64,000 nt of DNA from a bacterium (GTDB lineage: Bacteria > Bacillota_I > Bacilli_A > RF39 > UBA660): contig JAQXRJ010000098.1 in assembly GCA_029218465.1 (NCBI GenBank), positions 255-64,254 of the forward strand, in the 5' to 3' direction. Position 1 is the first letter of the stretch, and each line of letters begins with the position of its first letter. The translations under genes were made by a program, and so were the position numbers. The notes beneath the pieces were generated by a model. The model saw only the letters and a list, made by a program, of their open reading frames with translations. It ran no database searches and had not been told where the DNA came from. Shown here in pieces: positions 15,230 to 19,659 of the stretch.

Positions 15230-15258
15230 CAAAATAAAACAGTATCAAATACTGTTTT
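15230..15258 (-). terminator. hairpin/terminator after nrdG
   Basis: 10-bp stem AAAACAGTAT/ATACTGTTTT (15236-15245 / 15249-15258) followed by ATTTTGG on the minus strand. Confidence 0.55.
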
Positions 15259-15820
15259 ATATAAAAATTTTTTCTTCTATTTCTTTAATGACTTTATTGT
15301 CATCTTCTTTCATTAATTCTTCTATTAATATTGGTTTATTATTCTTTAAACTTTCCTTTACATCTAATATTCTCTGATTTCTAGATCCTCTAAATTTAAT
15401 ATTTAGACTTTTTTGTTCAAGTATAAATTTACCATCTATCAATACATCTATTTCATTTAAAAAATCTAATATTGAGTTATTAGTCTTTGACATTTTTAAT
15501 AATTCTTCAAACGTAAACCCAGTATAACACCAAACATTTAATCCACAATTATGTGCATATTTAGCAATATCATAACAAGCTTCAGCTTGCATCATCGGAT
15601 CTCCACCAGAAAACGTTATTCCTTCTTCTGATTCTAGAGTTTTGATTTGCATTTTTAAATCTTCTGTATCATATATAAATCCCCCATCAAAAGAATGTGT
15701 TTCTGGATTATGACACATATAACAGTTGTGAGGACAGCCTTGGGTCCATATAACTGCCCTTAGGCCTACCCCATCAACTATACTTCCTTTTTGTAAATTA
15801 CTAGCTAGCCTTATTTTCAT
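15257..15820 (-). CDS. nrdG: anaerobic ribonucleotide reductase activating protein (radical SAM)
   Basis: Radical SAM cluster CPHNCYMCHN, GGDP motif, and position downstream of nrdD. Confidence 0.9.
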   Translation of the reverse strand: MKIRLASNLQKGSIVDGVGLRAVIWTQGCPHNCYMCHNPETHSFDGGFIYDTEDLKMQIKTLESEEGITFSGGDPMMQAEACYDIAKYAHNCGLNVWCYTGFTFEELLKMSKTNNSILDFLNEIDVLIDGKFILEQKSLNIKFRGSRNQRILDVKESLKNNKPILIEELMKEDDNKVIKEIEEKIFI

Positions 15821-15980
15821 AATAATGCTTTACACGATCATGCTCTTCAGCGCGTTTTCCATTATTAAATCTATCAACAGTACCAACTAAATATCCTGTA
15901 ATTCTTCTAATGCGTTCAAATCCTACTCCTTCACCTGTTGTCTTAACATTTTCTTCCTTTAATTCTACTTCTTTTTTCAT
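15801..15980 (-). CDS. NrdD C-terminal glycyl-radical domain encoded as a separate 59-aa ORF
   Basis: Not in ORF track (59 aa). Hand translation: MKKEVELKEENVKTTGEGVGFERIRRITGYLVGTVDRFNNGKRAEEHDRVKHYYENKAS. It contains the class III RNR glycyl-radical motif RRITGY. SD GGAGGAGG lies upstream. It is in the same frame as nrdD, four sense codons (EEEK) after the nrdD TAG. It overlaps the nrdG start by 20 nt. Confidence 0.8.
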   Translation of the reverse strand: MKKEVELKEENVKTTGEGVGFERIRRITGYLVGTVDRFNNGKRAEEHDRVKHYYENKAS

Positions 15981-15992
15981 TTTTTCCTCCTC

Positions 15993-18305
15993 CTATTTAC
16001 AACAACAATTTAATGATGTTAATTTTTCTATACTTACTGATTCCCCTTCACGTCTACCACATCTTGGACAAACATCTTTAATTACTCCAACATATCCACA
16101 CACTGGGTCTCTATCAACAGGATGATTAATTGCACCATACCCTATTCCTGATTCTTTCATTATACGTACAACTTTTTCAAATGCATCTAAGTTATCTGAT
16201 GGATCACCGTCAAGTTCAATATATGAAATATGACCTGCATTTGTAAAACTATGATAAGGTGCTTCTATTTTAATTTTATTTTCAATTGATATTGGATAAT
16301 ATACTGGAACATGGAACGAATTTGTATAATAATCTCTATCTGTAACTCCTTTTATTTTTCCATATATAGCTCTGTCTATTCTTACAAATCTACCGGATAG
16401 TCCTTCAGCAGGGGTAGCAAGACATGTAAAATTCAAATTATACTTTTCACTATACTCATCACATTTTTCTCTCATAAATCCAATAATTTTCAACCCTAAT
16501 TCCTGTGCTTCTTTTGACTCACCATGATGTTTTCCAATTAAACATTTTAAACATTCTGCAAGACCAATAAATCCAATTGACAAAGTCCCATGTTTTAAGA
16601 CCCTTCTCAATCTATCTGTTTTTTTCAATCTATCTGAATCAATCCATATTCCTTGACCTAGTAAAAATGGAAAATTATAAACATGTTTGCTACATTGTAT
16701 TTCAAACCTTTCCAATAATTGATCTTTAACTAAATCCATCAATTCTTCTAATTCTTTAAAGAATCCATCAATATCAGTTTTTTCTCTTCCATTTACCATT
16801 CCATGTTTAATACCAAGTCTTGGTAAGTTAATTGATGTAAATGATAAGTTGCCTCTTCCTGGAGTAATTGCTTTATCAGGATCCACTTTATTAGCCATGA
16901 CTCTTGTACGGCATCCCATGTATCCAACTTCAGTTCTATAATCATTTGGATCATAAAATGCTAAATTAAATGGGGCATCAATAAATGAGAAATTAGGAAA
17001 TAGTCTTTTTGCGGACACTTTACATGATAGTTTAAATAAATCATAGTTTGGATCTCCTGGATTATAATTTACTCCTTCTTTTACTTTAAATATTGATATT
17101 GGAAATATAGGAGTTTCACTATGTCCTAGTCCAGCATCAACAGATTTCAAATAGTTTTCAATTACCATTCTTCCTTCAGGAGATGTGTCAGTACCAAAAT
17201 TTACTGATGAAAAAGGAACCTGTGCACCAGCTCTTGAATGCATTGTATTTAAATTATGTACAAATGCTTCCATAGCTTGATATGTAATTCTATCAGTTTT
17301 CTTTAGTGCCTTGTTATATGCCATATTAAATAATCTTTTTATATTGTCTGAATCTTTAGCATATTTATCAAATTGTGATATATCAAATTTTATTGATTGT
17401 AATTTATCAATTTCTTTAGTCATTGTATTAAATGTTATTAGTTTACCATAGTCTGTATAGTCAAGTAAATCTGCCAAAGTTTGCTTGAATTGTTTTTTAA
17501 ATGTTTTTAGTACTCCCGGAGCCATATAATAATCAAAGGCAGGGATACTTTGACCTCCATGTTGATCATTTTGATTTGATTGAATAGCAATTGCTCCTAA
17601 TGCAGCATAGCTAATTATGTCATTAGGTGCTCTTAAATGTCCGTGTCCAGTTGAAAAACCATTCTTAAATAATTTTTCTAAATCTATTTGAGTACATGTT
17701 GTTGTTCCCATTGGCATAAAATCCATATCATGTATATGTATATCTCCATCGTCATGAGCATCAGCAAATTTTTTTTTCATCAAATATGATTTTGCAAATT
17801 CTTTAGATATTGTTGAACCATATTGAAGCATAGTCCCCATTGCTGTATCTCCATCTACATTTGCATTTTCTCTTTTTAAATCATCTTCAGCTGCAGATTT
17901 CAATCCTAATCCTTCAATAGTTTTTAAAAATTTATGTTTTCTTTTGTCATCAAAAAACATTTCTCTAGATTGAGCACGTCTTTCACGATATAGTTTAAAA
18001 GATTCATATACATCTTTATATCCTTTTTTTTCAAGTTCATGCTCAATTAAATCTTGAATTTCTTCTATTTTTATTTTTTCTTCATCTTTATATTTTTTTT
18101 CAATATTTTTTATTACCCCTTGAAAAACTTTTTGAACATCTTTTTCCGAATAAATTCTTTCTTCTACATTTTCATGATCATCTGGTTTGTTTATTCCATC
18201 AAAACCTTTTTTTATAGCCATTGCTATCTTAGTTGCATCGAATTCAACTTTTTTTCCATTTCTTTTAACCACTTTTAGGTTAGCTATAACTTCTTCCGTA
18301 ACCAT
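15993..18305 (-). CDS. nrdD: anaerobic ribonucleoside-triphosphate reductase, large part lacking the glycyl-radical C-terminus
   Basis: ATP-cone at the N-terminus (VVKRNGKKVEFD), class III RNR core, and a C-terminal Cys-rich region (VCGY...CPRCG). It ends at TAG 15993-15995. The likely start is ATG 18305, preceded by GGAGG; the track uses GTG at 18317. Confidence 0.9.
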   Translation of the reverse strand: MVTEEVIANLKVVKRNGKKVEFDATKIAMAIKKGFDGINKPDDHENVEERIYSEKDVQKVFQGVIKNIEKKYKDEEKIKIEEIQDLIEHELEKKGYKDVYESFKLYRERRAQSREMFFDDKRKHKFLKTIEGLGLKSAAEDDLKRENANVDGDTAMGTMLQYGSTISKEFAKSYLMKKKFADAHDDGDIHIHDMDFMPMGTTTCTQIDLEKLFKNGFSTGHGHLRAPNDIISYAALGAIAIQSNQNDQHGGQSIPAFDYYMAPGVLKTFKKQFKQTLADLLDYTDYGKLITFNTMTKEIDKLQSIKFDISQFDKYAKDSDNIKRLFNMAYNKALKKTDRITYQAMEAFVHNLNTMHSRAGAQVPFSSVNFGTDTSPEGRMVIENYLKSVDAGLGHSETPIFPISIFKVKEGVNYNPGDPNYDLFKLSCKVSAKRLFPNFSFIDAPFNLAFYDPNDYRTEVGYMGCRTRVMANKVDPDKAITPGRGNLSFTSINLPRLGIKHGMVNGREKTDIDGFFKELEELMDLVKDQLLERFEIQCSKHVYNFPFLLGQGIWIDSDRLKKTDRLRRVLKHGTLSIGFIGLAECLKCLIGKHHGESKEAQELGLKIIGFMREKCDEYSEKYNLNFTCLATPAEGLSGRFVRIDRAIYGKIKGVTDRDYYTNSFHVPVYYPISIENKIKIEAPYHSFTNAGHISYIELDGDPSDNLDAFEKVVRIMKESGIGYGAINHPVDRDPVCGYVGVIKDVCPRCGRREGESVSIEKLTSLNCCCK

Positions 18306-18607
18306 ATATACCTCCACGAACTATTTTCTCTTACAGTTTAAATTATATACATTTAATTATTCAAAATCAATCAAATATATGTAAATTTTTTTACTTTTTT
18401 TCAAAACCCTTATTTTTCAAGGAAATTTAAATTTGTTCGATTTACATTTTTTATTTTTTTGTTTTTTCTATATCTATTTTTTAATTTTTCCTATATAAAA
18501 TAAGGATTTAACATTTTAAAAAAAGACAAAAATATATTTTTTTAAAAAAACATTTTTTTAAAAATTCGATTTTTGATTTATTTTTTTCTTTTGTTTTCAA
18601 CATTCTT

Positions 18608-18639
18608 TATATTAAAACAAGTGTCAAATAACACTTGTT
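18608..18639 (-). terminator. terminator after recA
   Basis: 9-bp stem AACAAGTGT/ACACTTGTT (18616-18624 / 18631-18639) followed by TTAAT on the minus strand. Confidence 0.55.
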
Positions 18640-18660
18640 CAATTTACACAAATTTACATC

Positions 18661-19659
18661 TTATACAATGTTATAATATTCTCTAATCTTGCTTTCAATT
18701 TCATTAGCAAGTTCTTTATTTTCTTTTAACAAAAGCTTAACGTTCTCTCTTCCTTGTCCTAATTTTTCGTTGTTATATGAAAACCAAGCCCCACTTTTTT
18801 CTATTACACCAGCTGTAACACCTAAATCTACCAATTCTCCAGTTTTTGATACACCTTCTCCATACATTATATCTACTACAGCAGTTTTAAATGGAGGTGC
18901 AACTTTATTTTTTACAACTTTAATATTCGTTTTATTACCAATAACATTATCTCCAACTTTTATTGCTTCACTTCTTCTAACATCTAATCGTATGCTTGAA
19001 TAGAATTTTAACGCACGTCCTCCTGTAGTTGTTTCAGGATTACCAAACATAATGCCAACTTTTTCTCTTAATTGATTGATAAAAATAGCTATTGTATTAG
19101 TTTTGTTAATTGTACCTGATAATTTTCTTAATGCTTGTGACATCAATCTTGCCTGAAGACCAACATGAGAATCACCCATTTCTCCATCTATTTCTGCTTT
19201 TGGAACCAATGCAGCTACAGAATCTATTACAATTATATTAATAGCATTACTTCTAACTAATGCTTCGCAAATCTCTAGAGCTTGTTCTCCTGTATCGGGT
19301 TGAGATAGCAACAATTCATTAATATTTACACCTAAATTTTTAGCATAACTAGGATCAAGAGAATGCTCCGCATCAATAAAAGCAGCTCTGCCTCCTTGTT
19401 TTTGAATTTCTGCTATTGCATGTAGTGCAAATGTTGTTTTACCACTTGATTCAGGCCCATATATTTCTATTATTCTTCCTTTAGGATACCCTCCAATACC
19501 AAGCGCTATATCTAAGGACAATGAACCACTTGAACATGTTGCTATTTCCATATGTCTATTGTCTCCTAATTTCATTATTGAGCCCTTACCAAATTGTTTT
19601 TCAATATCATTTAATACCTGTTCAAGCGTCTTATCATTATTTGTTTCAGTTTTTGCCAT
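18661..19659 (-). CDS. recA: recombinase RecA
   Basis: GPESSGKTT Walker A, and the whole sequence looks like RecA ([20 protein letters not shown]). Confidence 0.97.

Follow-up and report, generated by a model that had tools for sequence, protein, structure and literature searches.

Within the window (the whole stretch of 64,000 nucleotides that was analysed), the minus strand of a gut bacterium carries nrdD-large, nrdD-small and nrdG, in this order and in one operon. An earlier sequence-only reading had described the class III RNR gene nrdD as broken by a single in-frame TAG, and every detail that it gave of the break was confirmed on the sequence. The features of the locus are as follows:

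15257 to 15820, minus strand: nrdG, 187 aa, the radical-SAM activase, with a start that overlaps the end of nrdD-small by 20 nt.
15801 to 15980, minus strand: nrdD-small, 59 aa plus stop, the predicted glycyl-radical subunit.
15894 to 15896, minus strand: GGA codon of Gly29, the predicted radical glycine, placed by alignment to 8P23 and equivalent to Gly711 of P. copri NrdD.
15909 to 15935, minus strand: residues 16-24 of nrdD-small, GEGVGFERI, the intact copy of the segment that appears duplicated in the nrdD-large tail.
15986 to 15993, minus strand: Shine-Dalgarno GGAGGAGG, 5 nt upstream of the nrdD-small ATG.
15993 to 15995, minus strand: TAG stop codon of nrdD-large.
15993 to 18305, minus strand: nrdD-large, 770 aa plus TAG stop, with ATP-cone, catalytic barrel and zinc-ribbon region.
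15996 to 16058, minus strand: C-terminal tail of nrdD-large, GRREGESVSIEKLTSLNCCCK, apparently a diverged, in-register copy of the start of the Gly-loop segment.
18342 to 18370, minus strand: promoter-like TTGATT-17 nt-TATAAT upstream of nrdD-large, a pattern match only, from a consensus scan.

The large ORF starts at the ATG at 18305, with GGAGG just upstream (the earliest start given by the ORF lister is a GTG at 18317), and its product ends in ...CPRCGRREGESVSIEKLTSLNCCCK, after which the TAG at 15995-15993 follows just past the zinc ribbon. In the same frame the codons after the TAG read GAG GAG GAA AAA (EEEK), and the last base of the stop is also the first G of the Shine-Dalgarno. As the sequence-only reading had it, the ATG at 15980 comes right after and opens a 59-aa ORF with the RRITGY motif (product MKKEVELKEENVKTTGEGVGFERIRRITGYLVGTVDRFNNGKRAEEHDRVKHYYENKAS, stop TAG at 15803-15801); the gap between the two nrdD ORFs is 12 nt. 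The claimed 20-nt overlap with the activase gene also holds, the nrdG ATG lying at 15820, and the nrdG start overlaps likewise in a fused relative (L072, MRIRLAEDL). The nrdG product scores 141.6 bits against TIGR02491 NrdG (cut-off 126.1) and also matches Pfam Fer4_12 and Radical_SAM. No intrinsic terminators were found between the three genes. Around the upstream region of nrdD-large, the consensus scan returned no more promoter-like sites than in shuffled sequence, a brief search turned up no convincing NrdR box there, and the window lacks an nrdR gene. An alternative genetic code was considered and set aside: the long ORFs of the window end in TAA (31), TAG (12) and TGA (6).

The large protein is recognisably an NrdD, scoring 1036 bits against PRK07111 (cut-off 764; NCBIfam PRK07111 / TIGR02487 membership) and matching Pfam PF13597 with an E-value of 2.4e-189. 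It matches PF03477 (ATP-cone) together with positions 1-531 of the 562 positions of the Pfam NRDD model, of which positions 533-562 fall on nrdD-small; likewise, PRK07111 (746 positions) is covered from 3 to 713 by nrdD-large and from 710 to 744 by nrdD-small. Alignment to 8P23 showed that nrdD-large retains MGCRTRV, TTTCTQ, ENANVDGDT and GRGNLSF, keeping the Cys loop (MGCRTRV), the first-strand Cys, the Asn of formate-type enzymes and the NxN flap, catalytic positions with roles described for P. copri NrdD (PMC11226230). Its zinc-ribbon region reads D-P-V-C...C-P-R-C, i.e., three Cys and one Asp rather than four Cys, and the Asp in place of the first zinc-site Cys (DPVC) is also found in the nearest fused relatives. 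The glycyl-radical loop is absent from nrdD-large, by both its translation and its domain coverage, and the single-chain architecture of all characterised class III RNRs, with barrel and Gly loop on one polypeptide, is here replaced by a stop and a separate start.

What the large protein lacks is found on the small one, which begins with a variable K/E-rich leader, continues with GEGVGFERIRRITGYLVGTVDRFNNGKRAEEHDRVKH and closes with a short tail, and which carries the R-x-x-G-Y motif as RRITGY on its separate 59-aa ORF. Residues 21-53 align (E = 7.6e-9) to chain residues 707-739 of the fused P. copri NrdD 8P23, which form its C-terminal Gly-loop segment (residue numbers in the 8P23 chain differ by 4 from the native ones given in PMC11226230). 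Gly29 is invariant in the alignment of small-protein homologues (A1), and stand-alone homologues of 53-83 aa make up all of the best 120 matches and all of the best 150 cluster representatives. The core has a dN/dS of about 0.13, with synonymous sites near saturation (pS 0.62), and is thus under purifying selection. Only PF13597 (NRDD) and the NrdD models of NCBIfam are matched, PF01228 is not, and PHROGs holds no dedicated family for the small protein, which matches there only the C-terminal end of NrdD-large families. The best reading of this ORF is that it encodes a glycyl-radical subunit of roughly 7 kDa.

The sequence-only reading had suggested that close relatives be compared for the same stop, Shine-Dalgarno and ATG, and the split indeed recurs in 78 of 80 species-level relatives (independent species-level assemblies), though the stop is not always TAG. 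This recurrence far exceeds what chance could give. The split sequences analysed number 78, namely 77 loci plus the window; one further locus (L011) was left out as it is cut by its contig end. Among them, nrdD-large stops with TAA in 39, TAG in 38 and TGA in one, the small ORF lies in relative frame 0 in 29, +1 in 30 and +2 in 19, and the spacing between the two ranges from -4 to +49 nt. The small gene nevertheless lies directly downstream of the large one in the window and all split relatives, it starts with ATG in 77 and GTG in one, and a Shine-Dalgarno-like core precedes it in 78/78. The split form was also seen in thousands of protein clusters, and the best 120 relatives of nrdD-large all stop at the same tail. 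Apparently fused close relatives of the large protein (794-802 aa) proved to be miscalled: their genes had been extended too far at the N-terminus, and they stop at this tail too. The nearest truly fused NrdDs (120/120) have instead a short linker, CPGCGRTExDGxxFERIRRITGY, with no added tail, and the split version is about 40 residues longer (tail plus leader) than its fused relatives.

In-frame loci end the large ORF with TAG in 23 of 29 cases and out-of-frame loci in 15 of 49 (Fisher p about 5e-5, uncorrected for phylogeny), and a cross-reading of the locus table and the trees places in-frame loci in every subgroup. Since in-frame loci are mostly TAG and are spread in this way, an in-frame TAG would fit as the ancestral state of the split. 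In neighbour-joining trees, built for the large subunit by itself and together with 48 fused homologues, the basal branches are 0.002-0.005 long, and the split sequences form four groups interleaved with fused ones.

The tail of nrdD-large, which ends in a Cys triplet and stands where fused relatives carry GRTEADGVKFERIRRITGY, offers a clue to how the split arose. Compared with the pre-Gly segment of the small ORF over 78 pairs, it gives a mean BLOSUM62 score per position of +1.58 when the two are in register, but of -0.4 to -1.7 when they are shifted by 1-4. By this comparison the tail appears to be a decayed, in-register copy of the Gly-loop segment, which points to tandem duplication plus a nonsense mutation as the likely origin of the split. 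In a fused ancestor, about 15-17 codons of the Gly-loop segment would have been duplicated in tandem and in frame, the first copy would then have decayed into the present tail, a nonsense codon would have appeared, and an ATG with its ribosome-binding site would have evolved before the second copy.

The split also extends to phages, with some phage contigs carrying both parts, in some versions with a NUMOD4-HNH endonuclease or other ORFs between them. Intein-like insertions were found in related phage nrdD genes, and stand-alone NrdD-type glycyl-radical genes, with no nrdD-large within 4 kb, occur in many phage contigs and also in a bacterial contig.

From these comparisons we regard it as highly probable that the locus is a naturally split class III (anaerobic) RNR operon with the radical glycine on a separate, obligate small subunit. 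Of the three possibilities raised by the sequence-only reading, a separately made glycyl-radical polypeptide kept as a stable arrangement is thus strongly supported by the comparative data, because the split is found in 78/80 relatives, with three different stops and in three frames, always with a Shine-Dalgarno-like motif and a start codon, and under purifying selection. The second possibility was that the TAG is read through or recoded, so that a single fused NrdD is the functional enzyme and the ribosome-binding site of the small ORF is incidental. The window would lend itself to this, its ORFs being in frame and four sense codons apart, and the preference of in-frame arrangements for TAG could hint at tolerated leakage; however, functional read-through is impossible in 49 of the 78 split sequences, because the two ORFs there are out of frame. 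In addition, TAA is as common as TAG, overlaps and gaps of up to 49 nt occur, the Shine-Dalgarno-like motif and start codon are kept in every sequence, and TAG ends 12 of the 49 long ORFs in the window, hence is an ordinary stop. Recoding would call for a conserved in-frame stop of one type with ORF continuity, whereas TAA, TAG and TGA are all used, and the TAG bias is also explained by an ancestral in-frame TAG and by the overlap of TAG-GAGG with the Shine-Dalgarno. We therefore hold a read-through enzyme to be very improbable. The third possibility is an error of sequencing or assembly, or else a nonsense mutation that inactivated nrdD recently and made it a pseudogene. In its favour, a lone stop codon in a gene that is otherwise intact is what such events classically leave behind, but this possibility is ruled out by the conservation of the split in 78/80 relatives: the same break stands in 78 independent species-level assemblies and thousands of protein clusters, both parts are under purifying selection, and a point error cannot yield the roughly 40 extra residues. 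We give it practically no credence.

Two further explanations accept that two polypeptides are made. Split-intein trans-splicing could join them post-translationally into a fused NrdD, and RNR genes are frequent intein hosts, as the insertions in the phage genes also illustrate. The extra residues are, however, too short for intein halves (about 20 aa in the large-protein tail, about 18 aa in the small-protein leader), no intein family was matched in NCBIfam and Pfam profile searches, and the tail instead resembles a decayed copy of the Gly-loop segment, all of which makes splicing scarcely conceivable. Somewhat more room, though still little, is left for the small protein being mainly an exchangeable spare part or regulator in the sense of GrcA, serving several partners (phage or host NrdDs) rather than acting as a fixed stoichiometric subunit. 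The stand-alone genes so common in phage contigs and the high mobility of the NrdD glycyl-radical domain (GRD) would suit such a role, which we consider unlikely given that, in the window as in its 78 split relatives, the small gene always follows the large one directly and the large protein itself is without a Gly loop. As the large protein lacks this loop, the small protein must be the primary radical carrier at this locus.

In a two-subunit class III RNR, the 770-aa protein would contribute the ATP-cone, the zinc-ribbon region and the barrel that holds the thiyl-radical cysteine, stopping before the glycyl-radical loop, while the 59-aa protein, translated on its own from GGAGGAGG and the ATG, would supply the Gly loop with Gly29 as the radical site. 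NrdG with S-adenosylmethionine would take a hydrogen from Gly29, the small subunit would sit non-covalently in the barrel, like the fused C-terminus in P. copri NrdD, and the radical would pass from it to the Cys loop. We infer in this way that the subunits assemble, that the free peptide is activated, that the pair is active and that the peptide is easily replaced after oxygen damage. Since the ORFs of the window are in frame, with only the TAG and four sense codons between them, some read-through fusion product may be made besides the separate proteins. Oxygen cuts glycyl-radical proteins at the radical glycine. Because the cleavage falls there, the loss would be limited to the roughly 7-kDa subunit, which makes cheap repair a plausible benefit of the split, and a free small subunit may also be more accessible to the activase. 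A two-subunit enzyme is in keeping with the GRD of NrdD being a mobile module in solved structures (PMC11226230) and with PFL-type stand-alone Gly-radical proteins, which are activatable and can complement a truncated enzyme (PMC8683613). AlphaFold2 modelling of the concatenated large and small proteins (29 large and 30 small homologues in the alignment) gave a mean pLDDT of 52.9 and a pTM of 0.42, a model too poor for a test of docking.

The two-piece NrdD arrangement is retained in some phages and in no fewer than 78 related species; none of the literature that we searched describes a split NrdD whose Gly-radical subunit is a protein apart, or the stand-alone phage form. To our knowledge, all characterised glycyl-radical enzymes have the radical glycine and the active site on one chain, and the only stand-alone radical modules that we know of, GrcA/YfiD and T4 Y06I, serve pyruvate formate-lyase. 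Spare parts are known for formate-lyases only, with none identified outside them according to a 2026 review (PMC13450708), while it has been proposed that they may exist for other glycyl-radical enzymes (PMC8683613). A class III RNR that is naturally conserved in two pieces would demonstrate that NrdD can use its radical segment in trans, and would open to test the recognition of the substrate by the activase, the entry of the Gly loop into the barrel and whether replacement of a 7-kDa peptide serves as repair after oxygen damage; a peptide this short can be isotope-labelled or chemically synthesised and would be a convenient tool. The finding also bears on annotation, where the small ORFs frequently go without a name or are called hypothetical, and the large ones resemble truncated genes. 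More tentatively, and with greater doubt than confidence, we propose that NrdD-type autonomous glycyl-radical proteins form a widespread undescribed family, acting as a detachable radical subunit of the split RNR in a large clade of gut Bacilli and some phages and, where they stand alone in many phage genomes, as spare parts with which host NrdD is re-armed once oxygen has damaged it. If true, this would be the first spare-part system for a glycyl-radical enzyme besides pyruvate formate-lyase, and the phage stand-alone copies suggest an unrecognised route by which phages keep dNTP synthesis going in anaerobic hosts. The pseudo-Gly-loop tail of the large protein might, for its part, be a placeholder until the activated small subunit docks.

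Compared with canonical class III RNRs (P. copri 8P23, phage T4 and E. coli NrdD), the system described here has the same ATP-cone, barrel, Cys loop, NxN flap and formate-type Asn, as well as the zinc-ribbon region, the RxxGY Gly loop and an adjoining radical-SAM activase; it differs in that the Gly loop sits on a separate 59-aa polypeptide and in the extra residues, about 20 on the large and 18 on the small protein. GrcA/YfiD exists in addition to a full-length enzyme, for which it serves as a backup. The analogy drawn to it in the sequence-only reading holds for the concept of a stand-alone radical module, but neither for the backup role nor for the family: the large protein here has no Gly loop, which makes nrdD-small an obligate subunit, the partner of a genetically truncated enzyme instead of a reserve for an oxygen-cleaved full-length one, and the small protein is NrdD-type (PF13597), not PFL-type (PF01228), and half the size. 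What is shared is that GrcA/YfiD of E. coli and Y06I of phage T4 are likewise small stand-alone proteins with a glycyl-radical segment only (PMC8683613), and that the small protein is presumably activated by its cognate activase and inserted into a large protein without a working Gly loop. A split RNR gene is also known from Aeromonas phage Aeh1, where the class Ia gene is divided into nrdA-a and nrdA-b by the mobE homing endonuclease (PMC3653736), and in this and other split phage RNR genes the catalytic subunit is likewise encoded by two genes whose products must assemble (PMC3653736; PMC3045599). Unlike in Aeh1 nrdA, no mobile element lies in the gap, either in the window or in its 78 split relatives; the break sets the radical-bearing peptide apart, and the apparent origin is a tandem duplication. 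With class I RNR (NrdA plus NrdB) the likeness is one of concept only, the radical residing on one polypeptide and catalysis on another: the radical subunits are not homologous, and in place of a metallo- or tyrosyl cofactor in a ferritin-like protein, the split class III enzyme would use a backbone glycyl radical on a peptide expected to lie within the barrel.

The class III ribonucleotide reductase (RNR) locus of the window, which comprises NrdD and its radical-SAM activase NrdG, lies on the minus strand, and here nrdD is divided into a large catalytic ORF (nrdD-large) and a small glycyl-radical ORF (nrdD-small), as follows:

18661-19659, minus strand: recA
18620-18660: hairpin and T-run (AACAAGTGT...ACACTTGTTTT) downstream of recA
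18305 (ATG) to 15995-15993 (TAG), minus strand: nrdD-large, 770 aa, GGAGG before the start, C-terminus ...CPRCGRREGESVSIEKLTSLNCCCK
15980 (ATG) to 15803-15801 (stop), minus strand: nrdD-small, 59 aa, MKKEVELKEENVKTTGEGVGFERIRRITGYLVGTVDRFNNGKRAEEHDRVKHYYENKAS
15820 (start, ATG), minus strand: nrdG, 20-nt overlap with the end of nrdD-small

Strand reading (15500-18500) and ORF listing bore out the details of the sequence-only reading: after the TAG the frame runs on through GAG GAG GAA AAA (EEEK), the ATG at 15980 opens the 59-aa ORF, and this ORF overlaps the nrdG start. Its identification as the normally fused C-terminal glycyl-radical segment was also confirmed. Large and small ORFs matched positions 3-713 and 710-744 of NCBIfam PRK07111 (746 positions), covered 1-531 and 533-562 of Pfam NRDD (562 positions), and aligned to residues 9-706 and 707-739 of the fused Prevotella copri NrdD structure 8P23, respectively, while nrdG scored above the TIGR02491 cut-off in the NCBIfam profile search. 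Given a 4-residue numbering offset, Gly29 of the small ORF equals the radical Gly711 of P. copri NrdD (PMC11226230), and in the 8P23 alignment nrdD-large has retained the NxN flap, both the Cys loop and the Cys of the first strand, and the Asn that marks formate-dependent enzymes. Where the zinc ribbon usually reads CxxC...CxxC, its first Cys is Asp (DPVC...CPxC) in the window (16059-16100) and in fused relatives (P0390-P0509), and this holds throughout this NrdD subfamily, fused and split alike. The hairpin and T-run after recA, not picked up by the terminator scan, suggest that nrdD is served by its own promoter. The G+C content of the window is 26%, and its long ORFs end in TAA (31), TAG (12) or TGA (6).

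Searching with the small protein gave thousands of matches, of which the best 120 were all stand-alone (53-83 aa); among clusters at 50% identity, the top 150 representatives were likewise all short (54-162 aa). A locus scan limited to a single genome for each species yielded 80 loci, the majority in MAGs of uncultured gut Bacilli or “Tenericutes”, which we take to belong to the RF39 lineage. When stop, Shine-Dalgarno sequence and ATG were compared across these relatives, nrdD was split at the same place in 78 of the 80 and fused in two (L072, L077). Junction statistics were drawn from 78 split sequences (77 loci plus the window; L011, cut by a contig end, was left out): the large ORF stops at TAA (39), TAG (38) or TGA (1), the small ORF lies in frame 0 (29), +1 (30) or +2 (19) relative to it and starts with ATG (77) or GTG (1), the gap ranges from -4 to +49 nt, and a Shine-Dalgarno-like core precedes the small ORF in every case. 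Without exception, the 120 sequences closest to the large protein terminate in the same tail; a few appear “longer” because their gene calls are over-extended at the N-terminus. The dN/dS of the small-ORF core is ~0.13, with synonymous sites close to saturation (pS 0.62).

From the sequence alone, three explanations had been put forward: a separate polypeptide bearing the radical Gly, read-through of the TAG, and an error or recent nonsense mutation. The conserved split, the variety of stop codons, frames and gaps, the purifying selection and the common tail exclude a sequencing error or pseudogene, and the proposed recent nonsense mutation falls with them. The same comparative facts exclude read-through or frameshifting as a general route to function, the small ORF being out of frame in 49 of the 78 sequences. 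The separate polypeptide, the explanation favoured from the sequence alone, is supported by both the recurrence of the split and the universal Shine-Dalgarno-like core, and the two ORFs must, as judged from these comparisons, be translated separately.

The nearest fused NrdDs (n = 120, 784-807 aa, Bacilli and Clostridia MAGs) all carry ...CPGCGRTExDGxxFERIRRITGY..., and the C-termini inspected among them end soon past ...DRVKH; the split form has ~20 more residues on the large protein and ~18 more on the small. The tail of the large protein and the fused sequence are collinear, and positions 5-21 of this tail after CPxCG align in register with the pre-Gly segment of the small ORF (mean BLOSUM62 +1.58 per position, 32% identity, with per-position scores above zero at about positions 5-19), compared with -0.4 to -1.7 and 0-12% identity at shifts of 1-4. 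One subgroup, with the tail ...LKRLEGKE, still has Gly at the radical position (cf. IRRITGY in the small ORF). The junction segment is thus present twice, and we infer as the simplest history an in-frame tandem duplication of ~15-17 codons, after which the first copy would have decayed, a nonsense mutation arisen, and a ribosome-binding site and ATG evolved. TAG ends the large ORF in 23 of 29 in-frame loci vs. 15 of 49 out-of-frame ones, and cross-reading of loci and trees placed in-frame TAG loci in every subgroup; this fits an in-frame TAG, as in the window, being the ancestral state, and the TAG bias could also stem from the TAG-GAGG overlap with the Shine-Dalgarno sequence. A single origin is not proven, because the neighbour-joining trees poorly separate the base.

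A pair of Cys residues (CxC or CC) lies at the terminus in the window (16007-15996, CCCK) and in tails of the related loci; the fused relatives inspected lack it. Thirty sequences have the pair at the large tail alone and 22 at the small C-terminus alone, with 4 having it at both and 22 at neither, a complementary distribution (Fisher p ~6e-4, uncorrected for phylogeny); a metal site and a redox tail are possibilities. By motif search, about half of the split loci have no nrdG directly 3' of the small gene (the L026-L067 subgroup vs. the window), and theirs is presumably encoded elsewhere. These are largely the loci with the Cys pair on the small protein, and several have a hairpin and T-run after the small ORF.

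Between them, two conserved ORFs, each with its own translation start, make up a complete NrdD, with the activase adjacent. NrdG would activate the small subunit at Gly29, which would sit non-covalently in the barrel and exchange its radical with the Cys loop. Such action in trans is plausible because the glycyl-radical module of NrdD is mobile and can be fully disordered (PMC11226230), and because stand-alone PFL-type glycyl-radical proteins are activated alone and then complement truncated enzyme (PMC8683613). An attempted docking model of the two proteins was poor (pLDDT 52.9). Since oxygen cuts glycyl-radical proteins at the radical Gly, just the 7-kDa chain would need to be remade, and we speculate that cheap repair may be a benefit of the split.

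In IMG/VR, a scan with the small protein found 80 viral loci, about 68 of them with no large-protein match in the stretch examined; ~60 of these ~68, with ~3 kb or more of flank, were counted as stand-alone, nrdD-large and nrdG being absent within ~4 kb. A short ORF (44-143 aa) with the NrdD-type Gly-loop segment occurs in 65 of the 80, and the stand-alone ORFs (e.g., L086:3994-4126, L151:3848-4114, L100:3940-4126) share the core G.GV.FERIRRITGYLVGT.DRFNN.KRAE..DRVKH. Of two loci checked for phage context, the neighbours in L151 are genes for major head, head-closure, major tail and HNH proteins, and in L086 the ORF lies between an endolysin gene and a small ORF that we guess to be a holin. 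By analogy with T4 Y06I for PFL, these ORFs are candidates for spare parts of NrdD. In a subgroup (L084, L121-L125, L142 and L150-L154), the Gly-loop segment is preceded by ~55-100 aa of conserved N-terminal extension (e.g., ...EIDAYIARAKEMYPDKIINKMTITPDGDFVDLKYEF...); a PHROGs scan of one such protein (L151-type) gave no match across it.

Fused nrdD occurs in ~7 of the viral loci and the split form in five (L095, L110, L133, L134, L137), whose large proteins have the same tail type. A NUMOD4-HNH homing endonuclease lies between the two parts in L133 (3174-3656) and L134, and a DUF1653 protein plus a 93-aa ORF without known function in L095 (3405-3967); the phage break seems to be a landing site for mobile genes. 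In the cultured Eggerthella phage EL753P1 (OP172808.1; L161:1688-5116), the annotated 952-aa nrdD lacks the Gly loop and contains an intein-like insertion of ~1 kb; a 102-aa ORF without known function comes next and then, ~400 nt downstream of nrdD, a Gly-loop ORF, which a TGACC repeat of 5 nt interrupts immediately 5' of the T-G-Y codons (...CGCATT TGACC ACCGGCTATTTGACCGGC...) and which is annotated over its first 42 aa alone, as a hypothetical protein. This break could be a frameshift, a sequencing error or programmed. On a bacterial-looking contig, a stand-alone gene for a 71-aa Gly-radical protein of the NrdD type (L162:3093-3308) neighbours the genes for DNA polymerase III alpha and a CHASE2-guanylate cyclase, and adjoins a block of small ORFs without known function that may be a prophage remnant.

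The full-text literature searched, with subscription-only works outside its scope, held no description of a split NrdD with a separate Gly-radical subunit. Split phage nrdD genes are ascribed, in the excerpts of one report, to introns, inteins, endonucleases or unexplained fragmentation, none of these excerpts describing the Gly loop as a separate small subunit (PMC3653736). A 2026 review names formate-lyases as the sole glycyl-radical enzymes for which spare-part proteins are known (PMC13450708), and the 2021 YfiD paper regards spare parts for others as an open possibility (PMC8683613). Split NrdD is conserved, widespread and apparently undescribed, and our reading of it is directly open to experiment. 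Compared with known systems, the locus is a class III RNR by each feature tested, save that its enzyme is not encoded as one chain. The likeness to GrcA/YfiD drawn in the sequence-only reading holds as a concept, as it does for T4 Y06I, but not as family membership; nrdD-small is NrdD-type and an obligate partner. The “genes in pieces” nrdA-a/nrdA-b of Aeh1 are similar, whereas the break in the window is without a mobile element. Within a known class of enzyme, the locus represents a new variant in architecture.
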